In this document: positions 26,501 to 62,680 of the stretch, in pieces
How positions within the stretch are numbered: the first letter of the stretch is position 1
How the letters are laid out: each line of letters starts with the position of its first letter
From: Nageia nagi
Taxonomy: Eukaryota > Plantae > Pinophyta
NCBI GenBank assembly: GCA_050084985.1
Contig: JBITNC010000001.1
Span: 59,272,001 to 59,336,000, forward strand
Length of the DNA: 64,000 bases
Direction: 5' to 3'
Notes under the pieces: model-generated
Told to the model about the DNA's origin: nothing
Databases searched by the model: none
What the model saw: the letters and a program-made list of their open reading frames with translations, nothing else
Made by a program: the position numbers and the translations under genes

Positions 26501-28743
26501 TTCATGACCAATCTTGATAATTCTTCAACTATCCTTCTTGATAATCCTTATTCTCATCTTGAAGTCATGTGTGTTGAGAATGCCTTGAATTATCCTTATT
26601 TGACAATTCCTTGTTCTATTGAGATCTTCTTGAATTATCCTAACTTGATAATTCCTTGATCTCCATACAATTTTCTCAAATTATCCTAGCTTTATAATTC
26701 TTAGACCTCATAAAAGTATGCTCAAGACTTACCTAGGTTTTATCTAAGGTTTAATACCATTTCCTATGATTAATGACATATAAGGTCATGAATATATTTT
26801 CCATCCTATTTGGTTATGCTTAAATCAATATGCGTATTATAGATCAAAACACCAAATATGGTTTTCTTTATCTATACAATTATTCATACCTTTAATAAAC
26901 ATTCATCCCTTCTACTTATGCAATAATGAATTATATTTATATATCACCATTAATGTGTATTGCATAATAATAATGAAATGTTTCATCATCCATGCAATTC
27001 ATCCAATAACATATAATAATATTCTTTTTAATGTCATTCAATAGCCATCATGGTTATCATCACATAATGTCATCTAACCTTCAATTTCCCAGTAAATCAA
27101 TTCATATGAATATAATTCCAAGCTCTTATTATTGAATAGGAAAATCATCAAATATTTATCATATAAATAATGGATCTTGAATACCATTAACATATCATCC
27201 ATATATCATAAGGGTATTCCATACATGGATCCAACTTACACATTGTATATATGTAAAATACATCATAATTTCTCATTGTCTATTAATGTATAGTAACACA
27301 AGATTATACAAATAATCTTGTTATTACATTAATACATATCCAAAATCTTCATACAAGCATCCTTTATTAAATATGAAGTTACATCCTCAATTAATTAAAC
27401 TAGCAAGAATCCCTCATAAGCATGAACTAACCTTCCTTGGACATGTTAGCTCATAGTGGTTATTTGGATCATGAAAAATTTTATTTATTATGCATCTACT
27501 CATGCAACAATCTCAAAAGATGCCTAGAATGCTACTTCATTCCTAGGTTACTCAATTCACTTAGAAAACAAACTTTTCAATCTTAGAAAAAAGTAATAAG
27601 AGAAATCAATCAATCAAATATAGATTCTTAAAAGTGTTAAAATCACTTCATAACTAGATAATAAAAATAGTCTCTCTTGTCCTCAATTTTAAGATCCCAT
27701 TTTAAAATTGATGACCTAAGATCACATAATTTAAATTTATTCCCTTTGTTCAATTTTTTCATTCTAATTGCTAAGGAATAATAATAACATAATATTTCAA
27801 TAATTAACTAAATTATCAAAATAATTCAACACTACTTAATTCCTCATACGAAAATTCATATTGTACATACTATAGAATAGAGCATTCATAATAGTTATTC
27901 TTTAGAATATAACTACTTATGCAAAATTCTCTCAAATAGCAAACCTACTTCACAACATCTAGGACTACTCAACTCATCTTAAGAAAAATGGCAGTTTTAC
28001 TATCTTAAAACAAAGTGAAATAAATACCTTTAATTCTTAATTTCAAAGAATAAATTTCTCTTTTCTCAAATGACTATGCCATTGGTTCCATAAATTTGAG
28101 AATGTCATAGTATTTTGGCCATAATTTTTTACTTGGATATTCATTTAAGCCTTTTTTTAAATGTGCAAATTTTGAAGATCTACAACTTTGTAATGTCTCC
28201 TTTAGAATACAACATGTTCAAGGCTACAAATGTCATATTACAGATTGAAATTTCATTTTAATGTTTGACTAGATTTTCAACAATATGGCTTCAAACATTA
28301 ATTATCTAAGAATTTTATCAATTTAATAATTTAATTCACTTTCATCCTAAAATCATGGATTCCAAAAAAAATCAATCAATCAAGCCAAACTAAAACACAT
28401 ACAATTAGATTTTTTTTAAGGACACACTATGATTGAATATTTTACAATTATTTCTAAAATCACTATGATCTTGTGGATTCTAGTTAGATTTTTCTGAAAC
28501 CATAAATTAAACCTTACCAATTAGAATTTAGATTTAAACTAAATTAAAATTTGTAACCATATCTATTTTTAAATTAGGTATATCAAAACTCAGTAGAAAT
28601 CTATAGCAAGGGTTTTTTATCACAACCAAAATAATCAAGAATAAATCAAATCAATAAATCTTTTCACAAATCTTCTCTATTTTCATAGATCAAATTTTTA
28701 GAAATAATTTCTTAGAATCAATTACTCAAACTTTATTGTGGAC
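17593..28743 (-). mobile_element. Gag-only non-autonomous LTR element C: 3' LTR 17593-~22551, internal 22552-26067, 5' LTR from 26082 interrupted by Copia at ~28744
   Basis: 17593-~20420 aligns with 26082-~28743 (both start TGTTAGGAC); decayed PBS GGATCTAATACTG at ~26067-26080; PPT junction ATGACA|TCCTCCCCT at 22551. Confidence 0.8.
23600..24130 (-). pseudogene. Retrotransposon gag remnant (element C)
   Basis: ORF 23693-23935 NFLSRFRKNFVSNKFIMEMFDEINRIGKRNKLVEKYHRKYMRLIKYV fits the Retrotrans_gag pattern; upstream EFIGEKLGDIVKAWMKE. Confidence 0.65.
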
Positions 28744-28959: not shown

Positions 28960-31047
28960 GGGGTAGGTTGAATTCCAAGCATCTGCCTAAACTTCTCTCT
29001 TCAAAGCACCTTGATGAAGTTGTCTATATTTTGTTCTTTAGTGGAACAATATTTCAACCAAATTATCTTTACCTCTACATGATGTCAAATCAAATGATAC
29101 TTCATGTTGATGTGCTTAGTTCGATCATGAAACTTTGGATTCTTTTCCAATTTCATGGAAGAATTATTATCAATTAGAAGCAAAGTGGGAAAACCTTGTT
29201 TCTCTTGTAAATATTCAAGAAGTTTCTTGAGCCACATAATCTCCTTTTTGCCTCTATAGCAGCCAAATACTTTGCCTCGGTAGTAGAATTTGTTGGCATA
29301 GATTATTTTCATGATCTCCAAGAAACAGCTACTAGTCTAAGATTCATAAGATAACCTAAAGTAGAAACTCCATTTTCTTTATCACCATTAAAGTATAAGT
29401 TAGAATATACAATCAATTTGAAGTCTCCTACCTTGTATTATTTGATACCAAAATATTAATTCCCCTTCAAATATCAAAGAACTCTCTTCACTGCTATCCA
29501 ATTGCCTTCACATGGTTTGTGCATAAATTGAGATATAATAGCAACCATAAATGAATTATTGGGTTTGGTAGTGGTTAGATAAATGAGATTTCCAACTAGT
29601 TTCCTATATTTTATAGAATATTGAAATTTATTCCCTTCAACTGATGTCAACTTTAAATTATATTATGTTGGAGTAGAATGTATCTTATAATCAATCATGC
29701 CAAACTTACTCAATAATTCTCCAATGTACTTTTTTTGGGAAATAAATATATATTATGATGCTTGAGTTACCTCAACACCTAAGTAATAATTAATATTCTC
29801 CATATCAATCTTTTCAAATCCCTTTTTGAAATCTTATTTCACAAATGTAATGAATCCTTCATTATTCCTTGTCATCAAAAGATCATCTACATACACCATA
29901 AGATATACAACTATTTTTCAACTTTCTTGACAAATAAAGTTGCATCATAGAGGTTAAAGTGTTGGAAATTAGTCTTAAAAATATGTTCAATAAGCTTGTC
30001 ATACCATGTGTAAGGTGCTTTCTTTACACCATACAAAGATTTTATGAGTTTACAAACCTTATATTCATATCCCTTTTCAATAAAGTTAGAAAAATAGTTG
30101 TATATCTTATGGTGTATGTAGATGATATTTTGAAAATGGGGAATAATGAAAGATTCATTACAAATCCTTCAGATTGAAGAATGTACACATTTTCCTTCAA
30201 AAAACCATTCAAAAATGTTATTTTTTCATCCATTTGATGCACTTTCCATCCATGTTGAGATGACATAACCAACAAAGAATGAATGATCACCTATTTTTCT
30301 ATAGAAGAAAATATCTCATCATAATCAATGCCTTTTTTTATACATAGCCCTTAGAAATTAGCCTTGCTTTATGTTTATCAAGTGAGTCATCTGATTTGTA
30401 CTTATTTCTATAAACCCACTTGCAACCTATTGGTTTGGTTCCATAGGGAGGATCAACCAACTTCCAAGTCCCAATCATGATTAGAGCATCATACTCTTTC
30501 CTCATGGCTTTTTTCCAAGCATCTTGGAAAGAACCTCCTTAAAGGAAGTTGGCTCAAAATCAATACAAAAATTCAATTCCATGTCAAAATAATAATCCTT
30601 ACCATCATCTAAAAAATATCAACATGAATTGAACTTAAACCTCCTACTACTCTATTTTCTTATCATGCTCAATAGGAACTCCAAGTTCTTATCTTCTTGA
30701 ATTCATCAAGATGAACATTTTCAAGTGTTTTTGATGCCCATTTTGGAATATTCTATGATGTTATTGGTTCATCACTAGGTTGATTTGGTGCTTCACTTCT
30801 ACCAAGACTCAATTTCCCAATCCCTTCAATCACATCATCTAACTAGCTCACCAATGCAAGCACTAAAGAATTGGAGAAACTATTGAAGAAGGTATCTATT
30901 CATATGAAATAAGTGGTGTAGATTACAAACTATGATCCAATATTAGTATCCCCCCTCAAATTTTGGAATCTCATAATTTTATTTAATATAAGGCTTCCCA
31001 TGGGTAAATTGGTCAAGGTGATCAAGCTACCACTTTACAACATCATT
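28960..31047 (-). pseudogene. Copia RT-RNase H plus linker
   Basis: WKKAMRKEYDAL..GTWKLVDPP..KPIGCKWVY; WKVHQMD..FLNGFLKENVY; YVDDLL; IMWLKKLL...DNNSSMKLEKNPKFHDRTKHI. Confidence 0.92.
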
Positions 31048-33789
31048 TGTAATGCTCCACCTATTCTTGACTTCACAAAACCCTAAAATTACAAACCTAT
31101 TTTTTATTATTTAATTTCAACACTCGAATGTGTAGGATGGACAAGTAATCCATATGAGCATATTAATGTTGCTAGCTAGTTAGCACTCACATGGAAAATT
31201 AGTTAAATTTAAATTAACCAACCCTAATCAAAATCCTTTTGGTGTTCACTTCTTAATGCTGATCCCATTGGAAGACACCTCATAGGTGACTCCACCATTT
31301 CTATTCACAAAATGTGCAATAGATATTCTTATCATGGCATAGTGGTTTCCTACTCATGGTCCATATCACCAAAGAGAATGCTCTTCCATAAGGTTATGCA
31401 TCTTTTTAGATGATAACCTTTGATTGACATGTGCAGATAGATTTTCCTAGGAAATCTTCATATGAAATGGGTAAGCATCATCACCTATGGAATAATCATC
31501 ATACTCCCATTTACTAAATTGCAAGTAGTATGAATACTAGTTACCTTCACCTAGTAACTATATTTTTATTGATTTCTATCCTCATCTGACAAATTATCAA
31601 GGATATGAGACACTAACTTACCCATATCTATCTGCTAGGCTCACCATGAAATTCGATAGCCTCATGCCCATATCTTGGGGAGCCATGGGTATTGGAATAA
31701 TACCCTTGAGTGGTTTGTATAGTATAATTATTTTTTAAGCAAGATTATAAAGAAAAACCATCCCCTCTAACATTCCTAGAAATAATTGATTCTCAGATCA
31801 ATTATTGGGTTTTCTAAGTTTTATGCTTGTATCGAGTAGTAGGATGTTCCTCTAATCTAATTTCTTGCAAATAAACCATTTTTTACATTAATAATTATGT
31901 TTGATAAATAAGAACAATAAATTCATCAAATGTGTACAAGATATTTCAAAACAAGCTTTTTTATGAATTCATTAAAGAATATTCAACAATACTTTACTAT
32001 AAATATCTCATATGCATGATGTGACATGCTAAATATTACTTTAAAAGTACATCACATACCAAAGAATAATAACAAGCTTTGAGATATTGCTAAATATGGC
32101 TACTTCTAACAAGGAAGTGTTGCATAGAGTATATCATACTCAAGGGGTATTCTTTTTATATATCATTTAGTGAATTTATGACAACAAAGGTTTGACTAAG
32201 TTATCTTCTATAGGATTGAGGTCTACATTATCTTCTAGGGTTTTAGCACCTTGATTAATCTTTCTTATAAGATCATATATAAGCTTTAGGTTTCATCTAA
32301 GATTGTATCAAGTCATTATTAATTTAACTACTTCAAGGTAATTCATGCAAATAGCTTCATTGTTTCTTCAATGTTTTAAATTTAAGAAATTCATATCCTT
32401 ATTGAAGGATATGATACCATTATTTCTTTAATGTTGATTTTCATTATGAGATACTTATTATTTTTATCCACATACCCTTTATTGTTTATCATAAGAGAGT
32501 TTCCTTTGTAACATTAGACTATCCATAAGTCACATTAGGATTATATCATAATCAATTCAAGTTGGGGAATGTAGAAATTATGTTTTTTACCAAATAATTA
32601 ACTTCATATTAGTATATTTAAGGTCCTTATAGTGCTGTTTATTTATCTTTCCAAAAGATTATTTGTATTCTCACAAGCCATCTAAATACATTTAGGAGTA
32701 TAACATAGGGTGAACAAATTGAACTTGAATTCTAGTTTATCATTAACACCTACTTACATTCCTTTGCAAATGACTATACAGTCAATGGGCAATGTCTTCA
32801 CTTCATACCCTAATTTGTTACATGATGATAATATTCTATAATGAGCTAGGGAACCCTTTTTATACCTCACAATATATAAGCCATTCAATTACATAAGGGT
32901 CCCCATACAACTATCAAAGAGGGTTTTTATCATATCCTTATCAAATTTATCTTATAAGGTATTCAATAGATCTTTATCCTCTTGATGTAGCTTATTGTCA
33001 TCTTCACCTTCTACATTCCTCCAAGGATCCAATATTCATTGGATATTGATACTAAGAAAGGATCTTGATTTTTGAGGATCAAGACAACTCTTTTGACCAA
33101 AATGCATCCTATATTAACTACATCATATTTCATTCCTTCACATGTAGTTTATTGACAATTCAACAATTAATACACTATTCTTGGACCTCATGAGGTTTTA
33201 TTTTATTTCTAGAACTACTTGCCTTCCTTGGTAATAGGGTAGATTTTCATATATAGTCATTTTACATACATCAAATCTACTTCAAAATAATATTATTTAC
33301 TCAAATGAACATATCACTATTCCATAAGAATCATCTTTAAAATAGTTCTAACATTATTTATCTTCAATTTGGTACTACTATTTAATTACATGATTCGTAC
33401 TCAAATATTAACATTCAATAAATTACTTTGACATAGTTGTTATTCGAAGTAATACTATTAATAAAATACCATCATCATGGTTCACCCATTATCTTATAAG
33501 TATCTATTCATACTTATAAACATTGTTTATGAGTATACATCCATTCTCAACTAAACATCATTCAATCATATTTTCACCTTTTTAAACTCTCCTAAAATTC
33601 AATATAATTTTTTTCCATTTTAAAAATTTTGTAATCCCTCTATACAAAATTATTTCAATATATTTATTGTAATCTCTTTATAAACTACAAAATATTAAAA
33701 ATAAATATTAATGGTAGCTTTGCATAGTAACTATATATAGCAAGTTTCAACCTACACACCACATGTTTTGTAGAGGTACTCATTTATTA

Positions 33790-34620
33790 GAATGGCTATG
33801 TGAATTGTTTGACAAAATGCCAATTCGAAATGTTGTCTCATGAACCATATGATTTGCAAGATATACACACAATGGTTATGGTAAAAGAACCTATAATTTG
33901 TTAGATGAAACATCGATGCAATCTCATGGTTTGCAATGATTGCGAGATATACTTAAAAGGCTTACATTAAAAAGGGTTTGCAAATTGTTTGAAAAAATAC
34001 CTCATCAAAAATTAGTTTGAAGGATCTTAATAATTATGCATTATGCACAAGATAGATACATTGGAATGGATGGTGAATTGTTTGACAAAACCACTCCAAA
34101 ATGCTGCCTCTTGAACTGTAATGATCAGATATGAATAAATGGATAAGTTGGAAAAGTATGCAAATTTATTTTATGGGATACCTCATCGGAATGTCGCCTC
34201 ATGGATCGTAGATTGATAAAATTGATATAATAAAAAATCCTATGAATGGTTGATAAAGTGTTTCATCATAATTCACTATCAAGGGTCAAAATGATGTACA
34301 ATAAGAATATGTTGGAGAAATCTATGAATGGTTTAATATAATGCGCTATTGAAAGGTAGTCTCATGGTTCGCATTGCACAAAGAGACATTATGAGAGGGC
34401 CTAAAAATGGCTTAACAAAAAGGTTTTACCAAAATGAACTTTCATGGGTTGTAATGATCATAGATAAGAACAAATGAATGTGTTAGAAAGGCCTACGATT
34501 GGTTTGGCCACATGCTTCATTGAAATGTAGTATGAAGGATGTTAGTGTTCATACGATATGCAAAAGTATGGATAAAAAATATCTACAAAGGATTTGGTAA
34601 AAGCCTCTTTGAAATGTTGA
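33790..34620 (+). pseudogene. Degenerate PLS-class PPR motif array inside the Tekay 3' LTR
   Basis: CELFDKMPIRNVVS*..ARYTHNG; DAISWFAMIARY; KLFEKIPHQ; LFYGIPHRNVASW; YEWFNIMRY*KVVSWFA; YQNELSWVVMII; ~80-93-nt spacing. Confidence 0.88.
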
Positions 34621-36744
34621 GCCAAAATAGAGGAGAGCCAATGGTCGAGAAGCAATCAAGATTAAACTCAAAAAAATATTTTTTCATAGTAAAGCTTTCA
34701 AAAAAAAACTTCCCTAGTACACATCACCCTTTCAAATAGTCTTAAGTGAAATCAAACAAAATGGAAGGGTACCAAAAGATGTCTCAATGTAATTTTTGTT
34801 TTTAATTTTTCTTTCAAGTACTATGTTCAAATAAATGGTTGACATGAATTCACAAGATCATGAATTTTTCTTTAATTTAATCTTTCCTATCTCTTCTTTA
34901 AATACTTGCATACATGTATGGATATGTAATGCTACCCTACTCTATACTTATACTAAAATCCAAAAATATTCGCCCTTTTTTTTGAATGTATCTTACAATA
35001 CTTATATCCCATATCGATGATAATTTGTTGTTCTCTATGCTATATCTAGGCATCACCATCTCTTGTCAAGTATTAGGGCACATTCACTATGCAACCCACC
35101 TTACTTGCATGTGGTATCTCATGATGAGCATGCTCTAATTTTATTTGGAGACCTCTATCACATGAGTGTATTATCTCACATAAAGAACTTATTCTATCTT
35201 TATTCTTATCTAGGTTTGATAGTTTCTTTTGAATGCCAAATCTTAAAATCCATGATTTCTAGACCTAATTATTTCGATAGATTACTAAAATACTTGTATC
35301 ATCTTTTTACACATGTATTGTAACTGGTGTTCCTTAAATGCTAGAAAGGGTTGTTTAGATCCACTTCCCATATCAATTTCTTAGGTCTATCCTCATATGA
35401 AGTACTTATTCATATACTTATTTAAAATCCTAATAATTGAGTAAGTTAGGTTTGGTATTTATTAAATGTAAGACATGAACATGACCCATTATTATTTCAA
35501 TAGTATAGTGCAAACCATATATACAATGAACACATTGAAATATTTGTATTGAAATAAAAGTATAAATATAGGATTAAACCATACTTAGTGTGATGCTTGC
35601 CATGACAATATCTTAGGTCAACTTTAATCCTAATTTTTAAGTTCTTACATGCATCATAAAATGTTTTCACTTAGACTCACTTAATAAAAATTATTTTGGT
35701 AATAATTATACACTTTGACATCCTTATTATTTGTTAGGTGGGAGATATCTACACCTAGGATAAAATTTATTCTTTTAATGATCAAATGGTCACTTTCTAT
35801 GGTAAGTCCATTTATAACAATGATGTATATATATTTGTACCATAATTTGGTGTAAAATAAAACAAAATCTAGTTAATGTAACTTGCCATGACATGTCGGC
35901 TACATTCCTTGATATCCCTTTTGATGTTCGATTACGTACAATTCTTCTTATGCCCTATCTTACAAATAAAATATTAACTTCAAAAGTAATTTGTCAATGG
36001 TTTCATACAATACATCAATTATGTTTATTACATCCAATGAATGCAATCGTACGAAAAGTCTTCATCTTCATCCATGGAATCTTCATGCCATCTTCTTCTC
36101 GTGATCATCCCAAAGTTACAATAATAAGTGGTTGTGAGTACTAGGAGAGTTTTTTAGCATTATGAGGATCAAGAAAGCTCTTTGTATGACCATTTTGACT
36201 TCTACTATGCACTATGCACAACTTCATTCAATAAATTCTGTACACCATTTAATTAAGTTATACTCTATATATGATCTCAGGAGGTTTTATGCCTTGTAGA
36301 AGCTACCTCTCTTCCTTGACCATAGAGTATAATTTTATTCAAAAAGGGAAATACTAACATTCAAGTAAGGTCCAAATAAAAGTCGATCCTTATTGAAAAA
36401 CCTTGTTAACTATTAATTGTAGGGGCATATTCAATAAATACCATGATCTAAATAATAACAAGCTTAAATATCTTTAGTAACCTTCTCATTGTTAAGGCCT
36501 TTACAATAAATACCATGTTCCATGCATCCTCATAATTCTACTTTTATTAACAAATTCAAGTCTAATTAACTTCATAGGGTCTATGTTTTCAACCTCCTTT
36601 ATACCATAAATGGTTTAATTTAAATAATAATATCTTCCAAGACAATTTGTTAAGTCCTTATTGAATCACTTTAAGTTACTGTAAATAAACATTATCTAAG
36701 TCTAGATTAAAATCTAAATAAAGACTTATAGGAGTGTCAATCAG

Positions 36745-38230
36745 GTCTATGGAAGGTACTGTGAAATTTTTGATGAAATGCTCCATCGATATGCCACCAA
36801 AATGGATATTCTGGAAGGGTCGATGAAGGATCACAACATAGATATGAGAATGCTTCCTCTTATATTATCAAAATGGTACACATGCAGATGCGTTTAAATG
36901 GAAACTGTGAGCTATTTAGCAAAGTGCCTCATTGAGGTGGAGTCTCGTACTAGAAAAGTTTGTAGGACTTGCCCCAAAAGAAAGACAAGTTGTTACAAAG
37001 TATGCACAGGATGGATGTGTAAAAAGGGTATGTAAATCATTTGCCATTTTGCCTTACCAAGTGTAAATGGAGACCAAGAAATTGTTTGACAAAAAGCTTC
37101 CTCCATTAATAATCTCATGGAGTTCCTTACATAGGATAACAATAAGTTATACGAGGAAATGTCTCATTAAATGTAGTGTAATGTTTTGCAATGTTCGCTC
37201 GATTTGCACATACTGGATACGTTATAGAGGCCTGTTCATTGTATTGATAAATTTCCTTATTGGCGCTCATTGGATGCAACCTGAGAAATAGAAGACTTGC
37301 AATTGGTTTGACAGGATACCTCATCAATATGTGGCATTATGGGCAGCACAAGCTAGATATGTTGAGAGGTTAAAAAATAAGAAAATTGATGGACGTATCC
37401 CTGATATGTCGTCCCATGTATCAAACGATCGGTAAATCGCTTGACAAAAAAAATTAACTCAATAAATGAAGTCAACAATGATTGTGTTGAAGGAGATCAA
37501 TGGATTTGCCTGGTCTAATGCCTTGTTGACATGAATATCAACACGAATGGAAGGGTTCTATGAGTCATTTGCAATCTATTGAATGCAATGGGCAGTGGAT
37601 AGAAAAACTTATGTATTGATTGACAAGAAGTAGTCTCATGGATGGCATGGAACACATTCAGGATCTCTCGCCAAAATGCCTCACCGAAACCAATCTTACA
37701 TGGGTCGTAGGTTAGGCACAAAATGGGTAAATATTATCAAATGCAAAGTAGGATGAATATACCTATGTCTTATTTGAAATAATATTTTATCTAAAATGAA
37801 GACCCATCGCCAGTATTGATCATAGGATACGTACAAGAACGGGTCCTTTGAACGCCTTCAGTTATTGTCCATAGAACATGCACTAATCTGATACATGGGT
37901 GGGAGAATACAAAAGCTTATTAAGTGCCTTATTGAGATGGAATCTCATGAAATGCAAATGATCACACTTAAAGGACTGGTACATGGAGGTATCAATACCT
38001 CATCAATATGCCTTCTCATTAAGTGAAAAGGTCATCGAAAGTACGCCAAACAGACAGGTTTGGGAATCCCATAAATTATCCCACCTTTACCCATCAAAAT
38101 TCAACCTTATGGAATGCCAATGAGTGTAGGGTGATCATGCCAGAATGGCCTAATAGGATGCCTTATTGATTTGCAATATTTTTGGATAAAAAAAATCATA
38201 GAGATGCACAAAATGGATACCTTAAAAGTG
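36745..38230 (+). pseudogene. Degenerate PLS-class PPR motif array inside the element D 3' LTR
   Basis: CEIFDEMLHR; CELFSKVPH*GGVS; ORF 37067 KKLFDKKLPPLIISW; CNWFDRIPHQYVALW; QEVVSW; AKMPHRN..VG*AQNG; LIIGYVQ; HQNSTLWNA. Confidence 0.85.
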
Positions 38231-41200
38231 AAGACATGGCACAAAAAAATAGAGGTATTGACTAGTAATTTCCCTACTTTGGCATGTCTTTCAAAATGTT
38301 ACCCGTGACTTCCTATGCAAGTAAGATAAGTAATTTAAAATACAATGAATGTCCTTTCACTACTACAAATAATTTAACATACATGAATTGTACACTACAC
38401 TCACATGCAATATTAAGCAAGTAAAAATAAATATTATACTATTCAAAGGATACTACTCATGAAATGGTAGTAAGAAATTTTCATTTAAGCATTCAAATAG
38501 GCTATACATCCTTTAATACATTTAGAAATTTCCAAATAAGCTTCAAATTTTAATTAATCATTTTAGTATTAGAGACTAAAATAAAAGAAAGGCACCTAGA
38601 ATTTAAGAAGGTGCTTCCTCCTCTAGAGGACTTTAGACCAAGATTTTGAGAAAGAGGGAGAAGAGAATAATATGATGCCTAATTCCGAAGGGTTTCCATT
38701 TATTTATAGTTTGAAGGGTAGTCTAATCCATCCAAAACAAATACTATTTATCCAAGTTAGCTACTTTATATGTAAGGTGTGGGGATTTTATTTTTTTATG
38801 AGAAGGTTTGGGACAATTTTGTTTTTAAGTTTTCATGACTTCCAGAAATAATTTCACACCTAAAATTAGGAAATAAAAGATTTTATCAATCATGTTACAC
38901 CTAATTAAAGGAGACAAGTTGTGTGGGGTATCTTTCTCAATTATTTTGGCAAGGCACTAAAATAGCCTTATAACCCCCATGAAATGACAAGAAATCCTTT
39001 AACCTTAGAGTTTATCTTTCTCCTAAATTTATTTTTGTAAAACAAAAAAAAGTTCATTAGTAAAAATTTAAAATTTGAATGGGTGGAATATTCCTCATTT
39101 TAAAAAGTGCCAATTTTATTTTTCCAAACAAATTCAAGAATTCATACCATATTTTAACATAATATTTACCTGTGGAGGCCACTCATCCTACAAGTTAAAT
39201 TTTGTTAGTGCACATTCACACATACACAAGCATCACACACAACATAGGGATCGAATATCATACAAAATTGTTATGTAGCTATATGATCTATGAAAGGTCT
39301 TTATGATTCTATCAGCAATTGAATGTCAATCATTTCTTTCCTCTTACCAATCTATTCCTATAACCACTTATCTTGGTTCCCTATTATCTCTATTCTGATT
39401 CTCTCATTAAATCAACCCTTAACCTTTGTTACACAAAATCTTGAACCCAACATCAATTTGACACAACATAGCATATAAATAGATATCATTAGTCATCTCA
39501 TGATCTCATTCACATTAAAATTATTGAAGGTAGTCAAGAAATAATGAATTTGAATAAAGAATTCAAAATTATGAATGAAACAGGGTCATCACATACTTCC
39601 CCCCATAGGAACAACACAATCCTTTATGTTTCTTTCTTCTCTATTCATCAATTTACCTAAAAACACATATTATGAAATAATATAGTGCATCAAATTCTTA
39701 CATCGGATTCAATATTTTCAAAGGACATTAAGATGATCCAACTTGAGTCTATGTGAATGACCAGTTAACCCTCAAGTGGGTTAAGTTCATCAATAACCAA
39801 AATTGATCAACCCCTTCATTTCTAGTGTTCACCACTATAATCCTATTCAGAGTAGGTTGAATGTATTAACGTAATCCCACCATTACTATTTGCTAACCAA
39901 TCAACTACAAAATCCCATTTGATCACAGCAATAGATTTTGGTTTCATCTTGGGACCCATATCACCCATGATGGCACCAATCCAAAATAAGAGCATACAAC
40001 GTATGAGAATATCATCCATAATACTATGGGTAAAGCGCATCACCCCTAGAATAACTATCATTTTCAATCATAAAACCATGATAAAAAATACCTAAAACTT
40101 ATATCCTCACCTAATATAGTACATATTTCTTGGTTACTACCCCTTATCTTGAGGTAAGATGACTAACCTTCCCATATCTATTAGTTAGTATCCCTAGTGG
40201 TCCGAGCTTACATGCCCATATCTTGGGAATCCAAATGTCTTTTGGAAGTAACAACTTCCTTATCATGGTGTTATAAAAAATCATCATTTTTCATCAATGT
40301 TATTCAATAAATATAGCAAATATATGAATTAGTCATAAACATTATAGCTAATCTATCAATTACAATAGATCCTCACTCGATATTTCAAAATATAAAGATT
40401 ATCAATAGACAATTTTTCATTCTTAGGCATGAAACCATCATGTTCAAAAATTTATGTAATATCCATATCTTCATGTGAGATTTACTCACTATCATCATTA
40501 GGCCCTATATTTTTGGATATAATAGGCATAAAATTGGATTAATAATCCTTAAAAATCTTGATTTATATCCTTCTACTTAGTACTTAGGTTTGAATTAAAG
40601 AAAATCATCAGTTCTACTTCTACAAAGAGTTATCCTTTCAGGAGAATATTAATAATAAATGTTAATCACATCTTTATTATTGATTTAACACATTAACAAA
40701 GTATTCATCATTAAGGGATTCATCCCTATTTATGCTTACCATTGAAAGTCCAATATTACCTGAACTTCCTTCATTAGAGTTGATCAATGTATCTTGGAAA
40801 AAATTCATCCCAAACTGAGTTAAAAGTTTTTGTATCCTCGAGTTTTCTCCTTCCAAAACTCAAACTCCTTAAGAGAAGTGTTAGTACTTATTAACCCTAT
40901 TTCTTGAATAATTTGAACTTGTTCCTAAATTTCCTATTTTTGGATAAGAAACCTTTCATTTTCTATGGCCAATTGATTTTGGTCGATCATTAATATGACA
41001 TTTTCTTGATTCAAAGTGTCTCTCTGAATCCTAAGAGATTCTCTTTGTTCTCCTTCAATGATCAATTGTTATCATAAGAAAGCATTTTCATTGTCAAACA
41101 ATATTTTTCTTATTAAAATTTCTTAGTGATACATTCTTATAAATATTCTACTCATATGAAGTACTATTGGGTTCCCTAATGATTTATCATCATTTTTCTC

Positions 41201-44200
41201 ACTAAAATTTATAGCTCAAACAAGAAAGGTAAGTAAGCAACCATTGAATTTTAGAATATTTCTCTAATGTTCACACATCATATTTTGAGAGTACAAACAC
41301 AAACATTCACAAATAGGCTAATCATTTATTTAAATCAATCAATAGTTTAGGAAAAAAGGAAATTTCCCCCATTTAGGGTTCATCTTCCTTATTATCCTTA
41401 TCATTAGGTGATCTTGATGAGTTCAAAGAGACCCTAATACCATGTTGAAGTAACAATTTTTCATACCTTCCATCCCACATTCTCTATTTTTCTATTTCCT
41501 ATAAGGAGGCACTAAGATGTACGAATGCTTGTTCTTGCACACTTTGAATTTGTTGGATCAATTTACACTCCTCATTGATGAGGTCAATCATCAACTTATT
41601 ACTCTTCGAGGATATGAAATTCCAAATTCTTTCACATTCTTCTCTTTTCCTTCAAAGATGCCTTATTTATTCTTTGGTGTTCTTCAACTATTATCATAAA
41701 ATTCATTCTCCATGATAGCTTGCATATTTTCCATTATTCATTGTTAGTTATTTGACCCTATTTTTATATAAGTGGTGTAATTTCAAGAAGTTTTGACTAG
41801 TTGGATAGGATGTGGTATCATACATGCAAACTTAAATTGCAATATCATATTGCAATTTTATCAACCATAATATCCCTTAATAATATCTTTAGTATCTTAT
41901 TAGATGCTCCTTCGAGGGTACAAATACTCTCCATACATAATTTCTTGGTGGATATTTAGTGTTGGAGTCTTTTTCATCCATCCATAAGAATATTTTCATA
42001 CACCACTTGTAATTAGTATGTATTCCTTCCTAGATAGGTAATAAATTTATAGGTAGAGTTTCTATTCTATCTACACATTTTGATAACAAATCATGGTAAT
42101 TCATAAAATAAATCATTATGTAGCACATCTCTTTGTTCTCCCAAATGGGATAGAGGAAAATATTATCTATCATGGGGTACATACTTTCTTGTCGCAACAT
42201 TCCTTAGAGGTGATGGATTTCCTCCTTCGTTAGGATTTAGCTATTTTTCCTCTATATCCTTTGAATAGTTTTGGCTATTGCATGATCACTCAACTTAAAA
42301 TTTATGAGCATTTAGGCTTGTTCATTCAATTATTTTTATATCCTAATCTAACTTGGAGAGTTATTCTACATATTTCGTATAATCCAGTTCTGGTGAGACT
42401 TGTAGCATACATGGGTCCTTCCTTAATATCTCCAAGGGAGAGTTTGGTACCTCTTACTATCTCATGGATGCTTTGGAAACAAAATTTGCCTTAGGATACT
42501 ACCTATTCCTTCACAATTTGTAAGGGATAGGGAAATTGTATTCTTTCCCACCTATTCGCATCCTTCTACTATTTTTGAGCTATTTCTCGAAACATGATTA
42601 CTTTTATTTCTAATCCTCCTACATATAATACATCAGATCAAGCTTAAAAATCCTTCAATTCTAATTTATTTGTTAATATATTTTACTATGTTGACTCAAA
42701 GTTATTCGACTAGGATAACTATCCATCAATTTTTTTGATGGAATCTAATAATGATGTAAAGAAATCCTAATCTTTTGTAAGCTATCCACTTTGCTTATTA
42801 GTGGGAATTGTTTATGTACTTAGTAATGAAATAAAAAGATACTTATATTTCTCATAAAATTTACATTGTAAAAGGATTTGGTTTTATTTAGTGCATATAA
42901 AAAATTCTTCCTTTCCATTCATTCTTAATCTCTAACTAGACTCTCTTCCTCATTGATCATCTCCTTGGGTTCCTCATCGGATAATGAAATCTTATTGCTA
43001 TTTTCTCATAGATATTTAATGATTTCTAGAGTGAGGGTAGGTATATTTCTACCATATAAAAGAGAAAAATCCCTATTTGCACTAGGTTTATTGATCATCT
43101 AGTAATTTCCCTTAACTTGAGTGGTTACTTCTTGTACCTTTTTCTTTCTGTAGATCTAGAAAGCTTTGCATGGTGATATCATCATTCATTTCTACAATAT
43201 TGTTAGAGATTTATTCTTTTATTTTTTTTGGTGATTATTCCCTTTTCTAGATCTCTTTCTTCCACCATATTGGAATAAATAACATATGCATTTAAGATGT
43301 ATTCTAAATTTCTAAGTTATATTGTCATACTCAAGCAAAATAAAAATTTTATTGATAACATTTTTCATTACATAACATAGTAATACATTTTATTGGGTCT
43401 ATTACATTATATATTCTAGCCCTTTGATGAAACATAATTCTTTTATATGTACATTACTACCCATTGAATTCAACATTTTAGTCACCATCCATAGATTCAT
43501 CTCATGGTTTAGGCCTAATAGCAGGTGGAGTTGTGATCTGAATAGGGTTTTCTTCTACAAGAGGAAGAATTGCACTTTTAAAAATTATAATATCTTTGAT
43601 TTTATAATATCTTTGATTTCACCTTCTCCATATAAATTTTCATGGAGAGCTCTTATTTGACTTATAATTTCTTCTATAAAGACAACTCTTGTGTGAACCT
43701 ATTTTGTTGAATCCTGATTTATCTTAGCTAGGTATTCATTCATCCTAAAGATTTGGTTCCTATTTTGTTCTGCTAGGGAAACATGTCTCTCTCTAGTTCT
43801 TTTATATAGTTCCTGAGAGATTTAATTTGTTGTAATTCATCTATTTCCCTCTCAAGCCTCATAGTATCATTTAATGAAGTATCACATAATCCATAGAATA
43901 AAAGTGCATCATCAATGTTGGATAGGATATCAAATTCTATAGGCAACCAAGTCCAATACCATCCCATCTTGATATGTTCTAAAGTTTCTTACAAGATGAA
44001 AAATAATAAGTTAGGCGTATTTCTTGTGCACTACTTCACCCTAGTTCCTAGTAGACACTTGCTTTGATACCAATGTAACACTACCCTACTCTATACTTAT
44101 AATAAACCCCAAAATTTTCAACCCTTTTTTTTAAATGTATCCTGTGATACTTATATCCCACATTGATGATAATTTATTGTTCTATATGCTATATCTAGGC

Positions 44201-45824
44201 ATCACCATCTCTTTTCAAGTATTAGGATACATTCACCACAAAATACCACCTCACTTGTGTGTCATATCTCATGATGAGTGTGCTCTAATTTTATTTGGCA
44301 GACTCTATCACATGAGTGTATTATATCACATAAAGAACTTATTCTATCTTTATTCTAATCTAGGTTATATAGTTTTTTTTTGGATACTAAATCTTAAAAT
44401 CTATGATTGCTAGACCTAATTATTTCGATAGATTACTAAAATACTTGTATCATCTTTTTACACATGTATTGTAAGTGATATGCCTTAAATGCTAGAAAGG
44501 TTTATTTAGATTCACTTTCCATATCAATATCTTAGGTCTATCCTCATATGAACTACTTATTCCTATACTTATTTAAAGTCTTAATAATTTATTGAGTTAG
44601 GTTTGATATTTATTGAATGTAATACATGAACACACCCCAATATTATTTCAATAGTCTAATGCAAATCATATATACAATAAACACATTGAAATATTTGTAT
44701 TCAAACAAAAGTATAAATATAGGATTAAAACATACTTAGAGTGATGCTTTTTTCACTTAGACTCACTAAAAATTCTTTTGGTAATAATTATACACTTTGA
44801 CATCCTTATTATTTGTTAGGTGGGATATATCTACACCTAGGACATAATACATTCCTTCAATGATCTAGTGGTCACTTTCTATGGTAATTCCACTTATACA
44901 AATTATGTATATATATTTCTACTATAATTTGGTGCAACAAAAATAAAATCTAGTTAATGTAACTTGCCATAACATGTTGGCTACCTTCCTTGATATCCCT
45001 TTTGATTTTGGTTACATAAAATTCTTCTTATGTCCTATCTTACAACTAAAATATTGACTTCAAAAGTAATTTTTCAATGGTTTCATACAATACATCAATT
45101 GTGTATATTACATCCAATGAGTGCAATGGTATGGAAAGTCTTCATCTTCATCCATCATATCTTCATGCCATCTTCTTCTCATGATCATCCCAAGGTTCCA
45201 AGAATAAGTGGTCATGAGTACTAGGAGGTATTTTTTAGCATTATAAGGATCAATACAACTCTTTGTATGACCACAATGACTTCTACTATGCACTATGCAT
45301 AAATTCATCCAATAAATTTCGTACACCATTTGATTAAGTTATACTCTATATATGATCTCAGGAGGTTTTACACCTTGTAGAAGCTACCTCCCTTTCTTGA
45401 ACATAGAGTATAATTTTATTCAAAAATGAAATACTAACATTCAACTAAGATCCAAACAAAAGTCTATCCTTATTGAAACACCTTATTAACTATTAATTAT
45501 AGGGGTATATTCAATAAATACCATGATCTAAATAGTAACAAGCTTAAATATCTTAAGCTTCTCATTTTAAAGGCATTTCCAATAAATACCATGTTCCATG
45601 CATCCTCATAATTTTACTTTTATTAACAAATCCAAGTCTAATTAACTTCATAGGGTTTATGCTTTCAACCTCCTTTATACCACAAATGGTTTAATTTTAA
45701 TAATAATATCTTCCAAGATAATTTGTTAAGTCCTTATTGAGTCACTTTAAGTTACTATAAATAAACATTACCTAAGTCTAGATTAAAATATAAATAAACA
45801 CTTAGAGGATAATCATTAATCGGT

Positions 45825-47290
45825 CTATGGAAAGATCATCTGAAATGTTTGATGAAATGCTCCATCAATATATCACAAAAATGGATATGCTAAAAGGGTT
45901 AATGAAGGGTCACAACATGGATATGAGAATGCCTCCTCTTATATTATTGAAATGGTGCATAGGAAGATGCATTTAAAAGGAAACTATGAGCTATTTAGCA
46001 AAGTACCTCATTGAGATGGAGTCTTGTGCTAGAAAATTTTGTAGGACTCACCCAAAAAAAAAAGACATGTTTTTACCAAGTATGCATAGTATGGATATGT
46101 AAAAAGGGATTTTTATCATTTAACATATTTCCTTTCAAGTGTAAATGGATACCAATGAATCTCCATTAATAATCTCATGGAGTTCCTTACATAGGATATC
46201 CAAAAATTATATGAAGGAATGCCTCATTAAATGTAGTGTAATGTTCTATAATGTTCACCCAATTTGCATACATTGAACACATTATATAGGCATATTCATT
46301 GTATTAAAAACTTTCCTTGTTAGTTCTCATCAGATACAATCTAAGAAATAGAAGACTTGCAATTGGTTTGATAGGGTACCTCATCAATATGTGGCCTTAT
46401 GGGTAGCATAAGCTAGATACATTGAGAGGTAAAAAATAATAAAAATGATAGATAGCTCCCTAATATGTATTCCCATGTATCAAATTATAGGTGAATCTTT
46501 TGAAAAAATAATACCTCACTAAATGAAGTCAATAATGATTGTGTTGAAGGACATTGATGGATTTGCTCGATGTAATACCTCATCGACATGAATATCAATG
46601 TGGATGGAAGGGTTCTATGAGTCATTTGTAGTCTATTGAATTCTATGCACACTAGAAAAAAAAATTATGTATTAATTGATAAGAAGTAGTATCATGGATG
46701 GTATTGAAAACATTGAGGATCACTCTCCAAAATGCCTTAGCAAAACCAATCTTACATGGGTTGCAGGTTAGGCATAGAATGGGTAAATCTTATCAAATAC
46801 GAAGTAGGATGAAGAGAATTATGCATTATTTAAAATAATTCTTTTTCTAAAATGAAGACCCATCACCAATATTGATCATAGTATATGCACAAGAATGGGT
46901 CCTTTGAACACTCTTAGTTATTTTCCATAGAACATTAACCAATCTATGTGTGGATAGGAGAAACAAAATCCTATCAATTGCCTTATTGAGATGGAGTCTC
47001 ATGAAATGCAAATGAATGTAATCAAGAACTAGCATATGAAGGCATCAATACCTCATTGATCTGCCTTCTCATTAAGTAAAAAAGGTCATTGAAAGTATGC
47101 CAAACAAATGGGTTTGGGATTCTAAAAAATTATCCAAATCTTTACCCATCAAAATGCAACCTTATGGAATGCCAATGAGAGTAGGGTTATCATTATATAA
47201 TAGCCTAATAGTATACCTTATTGATTTGTAATCTTTTTTGATACAAAAATAATCACATAATATGCACAAAATAGATTCCTTAGGAGTGAA
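45825..47290 (+). pseudogene. PPR motif array copy in the element D 5' LTR
   Basis: Aligns with 36745-38230 and shows more CpG decay. Confidence 0.82.
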
Positions 47291-49899
47291 GATATGGTAT
47301 AGAAATAGAGGTATTCACTAGTCATTTTCCTACTTTGGCATGTCTTTCAAAATGTTACCTATGAATTCCAATGCAAGCAAGACAAGTAATTTAAAATACA
47401 ATGAATTTCCTTTCACCACTACAAATAATTTAACATACATTTATTGTTCCCTACACTCACATGCAATATTAAGCAAGTAAAAATAAATATTATACTATTC
47501 AAAGGATACTACTCATGAAATGGAATTTAGTAGTAAGAAATTTTCATTTAAGCATTCAAATAGGCTATACATCCTTCAATACATTTATAAATTTTTAAAT
47601 AAGCCTCAAATTTTAACTAATCATTTTAGTGTTAGAGAATAAAATGAAAGAAAAGGCACTTGGACTTTGAGAAGGTGCTTCCTCCTCTAGGGGAATTTAG
47701 ACCAAGATTTTGGGAAAGAGGGAGAGAGAATAATATGATGCCTAATTCCTAAGGGTTCCCATTTTGTTTATAGTTTAAAGGGTAGTCTAATGCATCCAAA
47801 ACAAATAATATTTATCCAACTCATCTACTTTATACATAAGGTGTGGGGCTTTTATTTTATTGTGAGAAGGTTTGGGATAATTTTGTTTTTAAGTTCTCAT
47901 GCCTTCCAAAAAGAATTTCACACCTAACATTAGGAAATAAAAGATTTTATCAATCACGTTACACTTAACAAAAGGAGACAAGTTTTGTGAGGTGTCTTTC
48001 TCAAATATTTTTTTCAAGGCACCAAAATAGCCTTATAACCCCTATGAAATGACAAGAAATCTTTTAACCTTAAAGTTTATCTTTATCCTAAATTTATTGT
48101 TGTAAAAAAAACAAAGTTCAATAGTAAAAAATTAAAATTTGAATAGGTGGAATATTCCTTGTTTGAAAAATTGCAATTTTATTTTTCCAAATAAATTCAA
48201 GAAATCACACCATATTTTAACACAATGTTTACCTACGGAGGTAACTTGTATTGCAAGTGAATTATTTTTAATGCAAATTCACACATACATAAGCATCACA
48301 CACATTATAGAGATCAAATATCATAAAAAATTATTATGCAGCTAAATGATCTACTAAAGGTCTTTATGATTCTATTAGTAATTCAATGCCAATCATTTCT
48401 TTTCTCTTACCAATCCATTCTTGTAACCACTCATCTTGGTTCCCTGGGATCTCCATTCTGATTCTCTTGTTAAGTTCAATTGTAACCTATGTCACATAAA
48501 ATCTCAAATCCAGCATCAATTTGACACAAAATAACATATAAATAGATATAATTAGTCATCTCATAATCTCATTCACATTAAAATTATCAAAGGTAGTCAA
48601 GACATAATGGATTTTGCATTCAAAATTGTGAGTGAAATAGGGTCATTACAAGACAAGGTGTATAAACATTCACATGCAAGGATATCAAATAATTACAAAT
48701 AATATACTTTCTCTTGGTATAATTAATGTAATACCATTAATAAAAAATAACCTCCTTAATATTATCACTAACTCTTAAACAAGCATTTTCTCCTTCAAAT
48801 ATACTAAAAAAATTATCAAATGAATTTTAAAACTTGGCTAAGCATTTTAGCACTAGTGTTTAAAATGCTAGGAAAAGCACCTAGACTTTAGAGGAGGAAG
48901 ATTATTTCCTTCACATCTTATTATACCAAGCTTGGGAGAAGAGTAGAAGTGTCATAATGATCATTCACCTAGGTATTTATAACCAAAATTTGGAATAGTC
49001 CCTCCAAAAGTATAACTATTTGTCCACTTCACATGTTTTTGTTAGTGAGGTTAAGGTTTTCATTATTTTATGGTAGGATTTTAACAATTTTATTTCTAAT
49101 TCCTGTTTCTTACAAAATAATTTTCACACCTCACATTAGGCTCCAAAGTGTATGGAAAAGGTTCATCAATAATTTCACACAACTAACATATAAGATCAAA
49201 ATGTATGGAGATGATTCCTCTATTTTTTTTTTGCAAAATACCAAGATAGACTTTCAAGTACCATAAAATATCAAAATAGTTTTTATCCCTAAATGTTTAT
49301 TTTCACTCAAACCCTAGGATTTTATTATTTGTAAAGACTAAAATGCTTTGGTAAAAATTCAAATTTAAGTATTTAGAATATTCTTTCCAACTTCAAACAT
49401 AGTCATGTAATTTAGGCATTCTCATCAAGTTTTTGGCACATAAGTTTATCTACGGAGACTACCCATCTTGCAAGATAAATTTTTGTTAATGCAAATAAAA
49501 CCATTATACACATCACAGGGATCAAATTTCATGCACAATAATTATGATATGTAGCTATATGATCTACAAAGGTCCCTATGAATGTCAATGAATCAATGAT
49601 AATCATTTCTTCACTCTTACCAATCTATTCATGTAGGCAACTCATATTTGGTTCTATGGGGTCTCTAATCTAACTCCTAGAATGAGTTAACTTGTAAACT
49701 ATGTTATAAAAATCTTATAGCTAAAATCAAACTGATACAAATATTATATATAAACTTTCACAATTAATCATCTCAATTACATTCAAATTCCTAAAGAAAT
49801 TTAGGTCATAATAAGTGCAATTGGGTGAGTTGTTACATACTACCCCCCTTAAAAGGAACATAGTCTCCTGTGTTCTAAATTATAAAAAATAAAGTTTTA

Positions 49900-52730
49900 T
49901 ATAATCACCCAAACAAATAAGGAAATTATCCTCTCATGATAAATTCAATTTTTCCAAGTGGAAGAAGATTTAGAGTACTTGTCCCACTGGACTAAACATT
50001 CATTAGTATACCAACTTCTTAATCTTTTGGTATTAAAAGTTATGATTTTAATAGGGATAACTTCAATAGCTTGAGGGTCCAACATTTGCAAGTTAGAAAA
50101 ATCTAGCACATGATAGGGATCAATAATGTCCTTTCTCAATAATGAGACATGAAAGAAATCATGAATTTTTGACCTGACAAGGCAAGTTTGTAGGCAACCA
50201 GACTCTTCTTCTTGACTATTTCATAAAGAACACCAAATTGAGGATCCAATTTGGATAGAATTTATGGCATTTTTCATGGGTCTAACTCATAAGAATATGT
50301 TGTCACTTATAGCAAATTATTGAGGAGTTTTCTTAAGGTTAGCATAACTCTTTTGTTGATCAGCAGCTTTCTTGAGCTTTTATCGTATGGACTTAAGTTT
50401 CTCCTCCATTTTCTTTAACATTTTAGGTTAGTTCATCACCTAATCATCCTGATTGTTCTAAGATAAAGGAGTTACTACATCTCCTTTAGTAAATAGCTTC
50501 AAAGGAGGTCATTCTCAAAATAAATGGTATCCATTATTATAGGCAAACTCAACTAAATAGAGATATTCCTCCCATTTAGTCTTTTGTTCCATGTAGTACA
50601 TTCTAATCATATCTTTAAGAACTTTATTCACATGTTTAGTCTATCCATCTATCTCTAAATGATATTCTAAAATTATGTTCAATTTTGTTCCGAGTGCATT
50701 ATATGATTTCCAAAAGATGGAGGTAAACTTTGAATCCCTATCTAATATGATCACCTCTAAAAATCCATACAATCTAAAAATTTCATGGGAAAACTTATTT
50801 TCCATAGTGGGAGCATCATCAATGGTATTTCTAGGTATAAAATGTGTTACCTTGGTCAATCCATCCACCACTACCAAAATTGATTCATGACGAATCTAGT
50901 TTTTGATAAACCAATAATAAAATCCATTGAAATTACTTGCTATTTTTGTGTGGGAACATCATGTGGATACAGATATCCACTTGGATGTCGATTCTCTTCT
51001 TTTACCTACTAACATTTAAGACATCTAGACATAAATTCCATCATGTATCTTTTCATACTATCCTAATAAACATTTTTGTTTCAAATCCTCTCTCATTTCC
51101 ATACCTCTAGGGTGTTCTGCATAAGGGGGATAATGGGCTTCTTGCATGATCAAATTTCTTAAATCTCCCTTCTTTGGGATAATCAATCTATCCTTAAATT
51201 AAAGAACTCCATCTTTCTCAATAATATCTTAGGATGATGGTGTACCTTTCCCTATCAATTCCCAAATAGATTTACAATATGGATATTCTTGCTATAAAAC
51301 TTTAACTTGATCAAAGAAATCAAATTCACTTTTTATCATGGAATTGATATATTATCTATGAGTTAGGGCATCTTCTACCTTATTCTTTTTCCCTTTAATG
51401 TATTCAATGCCAAATTCATACTTAGCTATGAACTCCATCCATCACCTTTGTCTAGCATTTAGATCCATTTGAGTGAACAAATACTTCAAAATTTGATGAT
51501 TTCTATAAAGTTTGAAGGGCTTTCCCAAAAGATAGTATCTCCACATCTTAAGTGCATGGACTACAGCTACTAAGTCAAGATCATGAGTTGCAAAATTCAG
51601 TCATGAGTTCTCAATTTCTTGGATTCATATGTTATAGGTTTTTCATTTTGCAATAGCACACCATCCAAACCTTCCAGTGAAGCATCTATTCGTACTAAGA
51701 AATCACCATGTGGATCATGGATGGTGAGAACAGGTGTTGTGTAAGCCTTTAATTTAGGATCATAAAAGCTTTTTCATATTTTTTTTATCCACTTGAACAC
51801 CTTATTCTTTTTCTAAAGGCTAGTGATGGGATTGGATATTTTTTAGAAATCATTGACAAACCTTCAATAATATCAAGATAACCCCATAAAACTTCTTACC
51901 TCAATTACATTTGTTGGCATAGGCCAACTCATTATCGCTTCCACTTTCTTAGGATCAAATGAGATTCCATTTGCAGATATGATATGGCTAGATACTGTAT
52001 TTGTAAAATATAAAATTCACATTTTGATAATTTTCAATATAATTGATTTCTCAATACTTATAGAGCCAATATCAAATGATGTTATGTTCCTTCTCATTTC
52101 TTGGATATATAAGGATGTCATCAAGAAATACCAACACAAACTTGTTGAGGTACTCTTGATACATGCTATTCTTTAAATTCATGAAAGTTGTAGGGGCAAT
52201 AGTTAACCCAAAAGGTAATTACATAAATTCATAGTGCCCATACATGGTTTTTAAACCTACTTTATGAGTATCTAAACTCTTGATTCTCAATTTGTGGTAT
52301 CCCAATCTTAAATCTATATTTGAGAAGATAGCAGCATCCTTAAGGTGATCAAACAAATCATCAATCCTAGGAAATGGATGCCTATTTCTTATGGTGACAT
52401 TATTTAGAATCTTGTAATCATTACACAACCTTAGGGTACTATATTTATTATTACAAATCACACTATATCATCCCATGGTAATACATTAGGATTTATCAAT
52501 TTTTTTCTAAGATATATTGTAATCGTACCTTCATCTCTTGCATCCAAATAGTGTTCATTCAATAGGGAGTTCTATAAATAGGCTCTACTCCAAGTACCAA
52601 GTATATCAAGAAATCAAATTCTCATTTTGGGGGTAATGCTAGTAGGTCATTAGGGAATCCATATTTGTATTATCTTTACAAAGGATACTTGTTCAGCAGT
52701 TCTACATCCTTATTATTTTGTTCAACCTCC
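49900..52730 (-). pseudogene. Tekay RT-RNase H-integrase-chromodomain
   Basis: ORF 52219 [31 protein letters not shown]...DLRLGYH; ORF 50641 VVVDGLTKVTHFIP...IILDRDSKFTS; ORF 49945 CLVQWDKYSKSSSTW (chromodomain). Confidence 0.93.
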
Positions 52731-52738
52731 TTAACTTT

Positions 52739-53370
52739 TGTTAGAATTTTAACCTTTACTTGGTTAGTTTAGTGGGAATAATTAAATTATTCTCATTTAC
52801 TTAGGTTAGAGGTAAATTATTTTATCCTCTATTTTTTATATATGTATTTGTGGTGTAAGGAAATATTCCAAAGGAATCCCTACATCTATCTTTTACTCTT
52901 ATGGACTTATAATTCTTCTCATAAATATGTGACAATAATTCTTTTTAATTCCTCATTTAAGATGATTATATAATGAGAGTTACACTAATTTGTACTCCTT
53001 CTATAATGGGTGTTATTTTATAACTCCCACCTTTTGTATTGCAAGGTGAAAAGTTTAGATTATAGGAGTTACTTAGTAACTCCCTCTCTTCACCTCTATT
53101 TATTGAGGTGCCTTCTCCTCTCTTCATCATCTTGGAATTCTCCTAAATCTTTGTAATGAGCTCTTTATAGCTCTCTTGTATTCTTGTTTGTTCTTTTTCC
53201 ATTCTTGCAATGTAGGAGGTTTTTTTCTTTATTTTTCCCCCTTAACAAATTTCTTGTCTCTTTGCATTTTGTGATTTCTCACTCATGATGCTATAATTTC
53301 TAACCTTGCATATTTTTTACTTTCAAGTTTTAGTAATAATTTTATTTTGATCCTCCTAAAATTTCTAACA
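52739..53370. mobile_element. Solo LTR (632 bp) in the Tekay PR-RT linker
   Basis: TGTTAGA...TCTAACA termini; perfect TSD ACTTT (52734-52738 and 53371-53375). Confidence 0.88.
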
Positions 53371-53375
53371 ACTTT

Positions 53376-62608: not shown

Positions 62609-62680
62609 CTTTCAACTAACATAAAATATCAAAATAGTGTTTATCTTTCAACTAACATAAAATATCAAAATAGTGTTTAT
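62609..62680 (+). repeat. 36-bp tandem duplication private to the Tekay 5' LTR
   Basis: CTTTCAACTAACATAAAATATCAAAATAGTGTTTAT twice; single copy at ~49250. Confidence 0.85.

Follow-up and report, generated by a model that had tools for sequence, protein, structure and literature searches.

Antisense relics of PPR S-motif arrays in the long terminal repeats of two nested retrotransposons of Nageia nagi

INTRODUCTION

RNAs of the TAS1/TAS2 type are linked to PPR. Gymnosperm genomes carry on average ~400,000 captured gene fragments each (PMC13477047), and in maize the capture of genes by transposable elements (TEs), with epigenetic conflict and the idea of camouflage, has been published (10.1101/777037). 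The locus described here lies in a 64,000-nucleotide stretch of the conifer N. nagi (GCA_050084985.1, contig JBITNC010000001.1, positions 59,272,001 to 59,336,000, forward strand), referred to as the window. Like the captures reported for maize (10.1101/777037) and gymnosperms (PMC13477047), it has a host coding fragment in an LTR retrotransposon, possible siRNA cross-talk and no clear methylation advantage. Unlike them, the fragment lies within the LTR itself (twice per element), antisense and behind a TATA box, and is a run of repeat motifs common to two diverged families. The term PPR is absent from the main text of PMC13477047.

Comparison was also made with the Tekay/Del chromoviruses with long LTRs, for example Retrosat2 (PMC3485330, PMC4029996, PMC6317226); the passages of these sources on such elements report no PPR-derived LTR segment, and the likeness drawn here is one of structure. 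The present element resembles the case of the Athila siRNA854 that acts on UBP1b (PMC3276544) in that trans-acting siRNA could come from the RNA of an LTR element; the siRNA, its loading into AGO1 and its target were demonstrated there, whereas the element here is known from sequence alone. The locus is likewise similar to PPR PHAS loci and TAS1/TAS2-type RNAs in that PPR-related sequence without coding capacity could give rise to siRNA directed at many paralogs (PMC4651229), but it differs in lying in the LTR of a mobile element, known in this case from its nucleotide sequence only. In our literature search, PPR arrays located within LTRs were not encountered; supplementary capture tables, outside that search, could list such cases. 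The arrays are best described as a further case of known gene-fragment capture, for which a regulatory role is unsupported.

RESULTS

Anatomy of the Nested Elements

The window, with a GC content of 29%, CG at 0.14 and CHG at 0.21 of the expected frequency, and no open reading frame (ORF) longer than 170 codons, would consist of old, methylated plant repeat DNA. Self-alignment and inspection of the ends placed one LTR element within the 3' LTR of another. Both have TG..CA ends, decayed 5-bp target-site duplications (TSDs) and LTRs of 4.6-5.1 kb. The component parts are as follows.

31048-63247, minus strand: outer Ty3/gypsy LTR retrotransposon (LTR pair; TSD TCATT/TTATC; K2P between LTRs 0.146; gag-PR-RT-RH)
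31048-34924, minus strand: distal part of the outer 3' LTR, predicted R/U5 (self-alignment)
34925-48650, minus strand: inner nested LTR element (TSD GGATA/AGACA; empty site GGACA at 62011-62015; K2P between LTRs 0.139)
34925-39593, minus strand: inner 3' LTR, 4.67 kb (self-alignment and end inspection)
39594-39606, minus strand: inner polypurine tract (PPT)
44061-44072, minus strand: inner PBS-like site TGGTATCAAAGC, which we take to be of the initiator tRNA-Met type
44074-48650, minus strand: inner 5' LTR (self-alignment)
48656-49837, minus strand: proximal part of the outer 3' LTR (U3 and start of R), with a TATA box at 48974-48982
49838-55289, minus strand: outer internal region, with PPT at 49838-49850, broken gag-pol and PBS-like TGGTATCAAAGC at 55277-55288
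55290-63247, minus strand: outer 5' LTR, with a TATA box at 62331-62339 and two later inserts (55562-56442; ~59212-61157)

Pfam matches along the outer pol were obtained in the order gag, protease, RT and RNase H, followed by a weak match to Tf2-1 SH3 (E 0.067). The integrase core was recognised by eye in the translation only, and chromodomain-like residues at the end of pol were also noted by eye, a Pfam match being absent. The top identity of the outer RT among 120 relatives listed was 68%, to PITA_08878. From this structure we infer a Tekay/Del-like lineage for the outer element. The 4.5-kb internal region of the inner element, by contrast with the claim that PBS, PPT and pol place both elements on the minus strand, gave no Pfam match in any of its six frames and no match to the outer pol. 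Thus, polarity, PBS-like sites and PPTs stand for both elements, but pol applies to the outer element only, and the inner element is likely non-autonomous. The two families have U3/R in common (~63%), together with a second block beyond the array (64-66%), as judged by self-alignment. When two 21-nt words from the LTRs were scanned against metagenomes, neither gave a match.

Identity and State of the PPR Arrays

A frameshift-aware profile of the S motif was built from 156 real 31-residue units, with mutation rates and penalties that were the analysts' choices. An array was assigned to each of the four LTRs.

33720-34620, plus strand: outer 3'-LTR array, ~10 PPR S-motif relics with a unit spacing of 79-93 nt (profile score 192.9; shuffled maximum 19.2)
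36745-38220, plus strand: inner 3'-LTR array of PPR S-motif relics, heavily degenerate (profile score 40.7; the profile path crosses 24 frameshifts and 13 stop codons)
45820-47280, plus strand: inner 5'-LTR array of PPR relics (profile score 28.6 over 45818-46301; alignment to the 3' copy)
58920-61706, plus strand: outer 5'-LTR array of PPR relics, split by the 59212-61157 insert (profile score 151.9; shuffled maximum 17.4)

For the two inner arrays, 12 shuffles each gave mean scores of ~15 (15.3 for the 3' copy) and maxima of 25.4 and 19.9. Scores on the reverse complement were at background, and the PPR signal is confined to the plus strand. The original prediction of a PPR frame on that strand therefore holds for the strand but not for the frame: Pfam searches with single frames of the arrays and of the LINE-like insert matched in none of 21 cases, and an open PPR gene frame with P and L motifs was not found, the longest ORFs of the window being located elsewhere.

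Homolog searches separated the two families. One 107-residue frame of the outer array matched 558 proteins at E ≤ 0.001 (best 9e-30), and the eight of these 558 that were scanned were all PPR proteins. In one search the best PPR matches were to proteins of Cryptomeria, Ginkgo and Taxus, and a wider search placed fern and lycophyte proteins at the top as well. With one frame of the inner array, nothing was retrieved at E ≤ 10; in tblastn this array scored at best 28 bits, versus 27 bits for a reversed-window control. The inner array is detectable only by the frameshift-aware profile and through the resemblance of its DNA to that of the outer array. On the strength of homology, the outer array is unambiguously PPR-derived and the inner array is weakly PPR-like. 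The content of all arrays is restricted to S motifs, no P or L motif exceeding the strict threshold in any of them. The tandem 31-residue S motifs expected of a PLS-class PPR protein are strongly evident in the outer array and weakly so in the inner, and the host coding homology falls within TE boundaries, as in other TE-captured gene fragments.

Given that 10 of 13 stop codons in the inner array and 6 of 12 in the outer array are stops in both sister LTRs, and that 16 of the 24 frameshifts on the inner path do not coincide with indels specific to one copy, the arrays were already broken at insertion. Of the nine unit intervals in the outer array, one departs from the frame in both copies, and the first three are compatible with intact 93-nt units. 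Divergence between sister arrays (0.165 and 0.162) exceeds that elsewhere in the LTRs (0.107 and 0.126), with ~2-fold more indels, which argues that the arrays have been under no constraint since insertion. The outer array also contains, at 33786-34332, a higher-order repeat of ~273 nt (three S units, 63% identity), which suggests that a duplication took place within the array, either in the donor or in the element.

Conserved TATA Box and Antisense RNA

The word TATAAATA occurs 35 times in the window (16 on the minus strand and 19 on the plus strand) and consequently means little by itself. In the aligned U3/R part of the four LTR copies, TATAAA is the sole TATA[AT]A hexamer found at one alignment column and constitutes one of 16 invariant runs of at least 6 bases; the second aligned block has no such hexamer common to all four copies. 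The conserved box is separated from the LTR 5' end by 856-909 bp and is followed by a pyrimidine patch. In the inner element it takes the following forms.

38701-38709, minus strand: CTATAAATA, TATA box of the predicted inner 3'-LTR promoter, which aligns across the four LTR copies and precedes the pyrimidine patch; predicted start near 38675
47766-47773, minus strand: CTATAAAC, homologous TATA of the inner 5' LTR, absent from the list in the original prediction

The boxes that had been proposed at 38701-38709, 48974-48982 and 62331-62339 were confirmed at those positions, and the fourth LTR proved to have its counterpart in CTATAAAC. With the nested element removed, the arrays lie downstream at a TATA-to-array distance of 524-625 bp, in agreement with the ~0.5-0.6 kb estimated earlier. 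The complete CTATAAATA is found in the inner 3' LTR only. Other TATA-like words are common to two copies of one family, so a different start site is possible. Candidates for a plus-strand promoter of the array were considered and rejected, the outer TATA-like word (33734) lying inside a PPR-aligned segment and the inner one (45755) having no counterpart in the sister LTR.

A new copy obtains both of its LTRs from a single RNA, and U3, R and U5 all pass through that RNA. Given that both LTRs of each element carry the array, and that the polarity is minus, the genomic RNA of the active progenitors would have held the array antisense. The proposed presence in this RNA of 1-1.5 kb of antisense PPR-derived sequence is thereby supported more firmly than was originally argued, since it follows whatever the start site. 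For the same reason, the alternative of an array confined to untranscribed U3 does not apply. The narrower claim that the array occupied the 5' leader is made likely, short of certain, by the conserved TATA box, from which we infer a position in R/U5. In maize, TATA boxes peak 32 nt before LTR start sites, but only 43.9% of transcribed LTRs have one (PMC13192763). A 5'-proximal TATA box with a long R/U5 has also been predicted for rice Retrosat2 (PMC3485330). Antisense RNA does not in itself imply function, because capture is possible in either orientation.

Target Potential of the Arrays

The 21-mers of the arrays were compared with any synonymous coding of 166 PPR proteins, allowing at most one mismatch; these proteins are proxies from other species, the host's own genes being absent from the set. 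Matches were obtained for 74 of 1456 inner 21-mers, compared with 1.2% after shuffling, and for 82 of 881 outer 21-mers, compared with 1.9%. Simulated intact paralogs matched at 90 and 94 of 126 21-mers (71-75%), compared with 5-9% at best for the real arrays against these other-species proxies. Among 21-mers identical in both LTRs, close matches numbered 1 of 37 and 0 of 23. In the outer array, 31 of the 21-mers could match a proxy perfectly. Runs of at least five short motifs were present in 11 of the 166 sampled PPR proteins, which shows that genes of the presumed donor type occur. A search for a long inverted repeat gave a longest arm of 32 nt at 75%, and Rfam returned no match over 31000-64000. 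Taken as they stand, these data suggest that the arrays have little target potential.

Loss of C/G and the Record of Methylation

Sister LTRs record methylation history directly. In the 5'-LTR arrays, T/A was found at 0.191 and 0.178 of C/G sites, whereas the remainder of the same LTRs gave 0.107 and 0.122, and so the leader copies were not spared; the corresponding values for the 3'-LTR arrays were 0.084 and 0.128. CG observed/expected in the 5'-LTR array copies was 4/36 and 1/18. The inner 3'-LTR array keeps sites that were lost in its sister (CG 22 versus 3, CHG 16 versus 2), and C/G was kept overall at 102 versus 45 sites in the array and 101 versus 95 outside it (Fisher p 0.0009). The outer pair showed the same trend (CG 10 versus 1; overall p 0.14). 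The two favoured arrays are neighbours, downstream of the sole complete CTATAAATA, and the CG sites kept only in 3'-LTR copies and lost in the sister 5' copies cluster at 33.4-38.7 kb, across both PPR arrays. This asymmetry, for which read-out transcription, local chromatin and ectopic conversion are all candidate causes, is the one hint that the inner 3'-LTR locus may be transcribed.

DISCUSSION

The reading that we favour, with a probability of roughly two in three, is that the arrays represent a decayed run of S motifs, captured once from a host PLS-class PPR gene and since carried as a non-coding passenger. Here, an ancestral Ty3/gypsy element would have taken up a run of short PPR motifs from such a gene into its long LTR, in a single event predating the split of the two families, for example by template switching or DNA repair. 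Template switching and the identity of LTRs have been described (PMC13317346). The array would then have been carried passively, small-RNA function not being selected, and if siRNA cross-talk with the donor gene occurred, it would have been incidental and would have weakened with the divergence of the array. In all four LTRs the array has the same position and orientation, and the inner and outer arrays align at 54-58% (scores of 77 and 99, compared with 34 and 37 for shuffled sequence). Given that the families also have U3/R and the block beyond the array in common, a single capture is likely; two captures are possible, because the similarity between arrays may be in part generic S-motif likeness. 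The segment has kept one position through ~37% LTR divergence, at a length of 1.5 kb in the inner family, and selection could be the cause. The sample comprises two elements, both old.

A selected small-RNA role would require that the antisense array be kept for trans-acting 21/22-nt siRNAs against host PPR mRNAs, or as input to a PPR phasiRNA network, to the benefit of the element. Such a role is distinctly unlikely. Antisense RNA necessarily existed, and it would have covered the S motif, a conserved and repeated part of the PPR family; spruce PPR transcripts are miRNA targets and PHAS loci (PMC4651229), an siRNA from an LTR element can regulate a host gene in trans (PMC3276544), and residual 21-mer matches are ~4-5-fold above shuffles with the other-species proxies. 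These points are outweighed by arrays that were degenerate before insertion, the inner version being barely recognisable as PPR, by the lack of excess close matches among 21-mers unchanged since insertion, and by the finding of neither a long inverted repeat nor an Rfam match; nor does lowering organellar RNA-editing factors offer the element an evident benefit. The trans-siRNA and decoy roles originally proposed are unsupported and in part contradicted. It is extremely unlikely that the array was instead a sense protein-coding PPR gene of the element, that is, an extra ORF in reverse orientation under a plus-strand promoter of its own. Plant Ty3/gypsy elements can have reverse extra ORFs (PMC6317226), and the first three outer intervals, being compatible with 93-nt units, would suit one, but the stops common to sister LTRs and the interval out of frame in both outer copies argue against it.

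Two further explanations concern the C/G record. Under a published model of camouflage (10.1101/777037; PMC13317346), silencing the element would silence host PPR genes too, and the host would moderate methylation of the array or the element. The CG sites kept in both 3'-LTR arrays are in keeping with this proposal, which is nevertheless very unlikely: reduced silencing wherever the fragment occurs was not observed, since protection is not tied to the sequence and, judged from the mutation record, the 5'-LTR arrays have the highest C/G loss. Moreover, as reported in the sources, the capture of fragments is not accompanied by lower methylation of the carrier TEs in Platycladus (PMC13477047), and maize carriers are only slightly less methylated, with no gain in copy number (10.1101/777037). 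Alternatively, the locus may be a persistent transcription unit in which an lncRNA antisense to PPR starts at the inner 3'-LTR promoter and runs across the inner array, and possibly across the adjacent outer array as well. We consider this unlikely, even with the sole complete CTATAAATA in the inner 3' LTR and the clustering of CG sites unique to 3' LTRs at 33.4-38.7 kb, and with the reports that active Wollemia TEs lose CG/CHG methylation (PMC10473749) and that maize has both LTR-contained and read-out transcripts (PMC13192763). These points are indirect. The CG domain was drawn post hoc and has loose limits, since few CG sites probably existed beyond the arrays; the pattern could equally arise from local chromatin or through ectopic conversion by a younger copy, and the outer LTRs keep TATAAATA too. 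Persistent transcription would be compatible with a passive origin of the array.

As a passenger, the array adds one more gene capture in gymnosperms, in which an antisense PPR relic, through its placement in the LTR, is both doubled and spread. Were young copies found to be conserved and siRNA-producing, retrotransposon RNA would be linked to the PPR phasiRNA network and would provide an origin for TAS-like loci. The strongest form of that idea appears distinctly improbable: a gymnosperm lineage would keep the antisense S-motif leader array as a generic small-RNA source against the PLS-PPR family, with the inner 3' LTR still driving RNA across two arrays as a domesticated TAS-like locus.

Other Features of the Window

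Several additional features were noted in and around the two elements. A block of the outer LTR (31467-31748) is 63% like part of the inner internal region near the PPT (40026-40303), which suggests mosaic exchange between the families. A block of predicted U5 (32958-33250, 36058-36338, 45128-45456 and 58106-58419) is 63-66% identical between families and may be a cis element or a decayed ORF; in the outer U5, a search for such an ORF gave no Pfam match and no translated match between families. The plus-strand insert at 59212-61157, which splits the outer 5'-LTR array, has an A-tail and a target duplication of ~17 bp and is LINE-like by structure, with no Pfam match. The insert at 55562-56442 is an 880-bp CG-rich TG..CA sequence with a TTGTG target duplication and is probably a younger solo LTR.

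Outside the two elements, a diverged repeat pair (17520-20419 and 26014-28742; 13.7%) surrounds gag-like sequence at ~23760-25160 and likely marks a third LTR element. Copia-like RT relics were recognised by eye at 29000-31000, the outer element being inserted beside them, and a 317-bp imperfect palindrome lies within that stretch at 29846-30162. A 158-bp near-palindrome (86%) at 7980-8137 is possibly a MITE.
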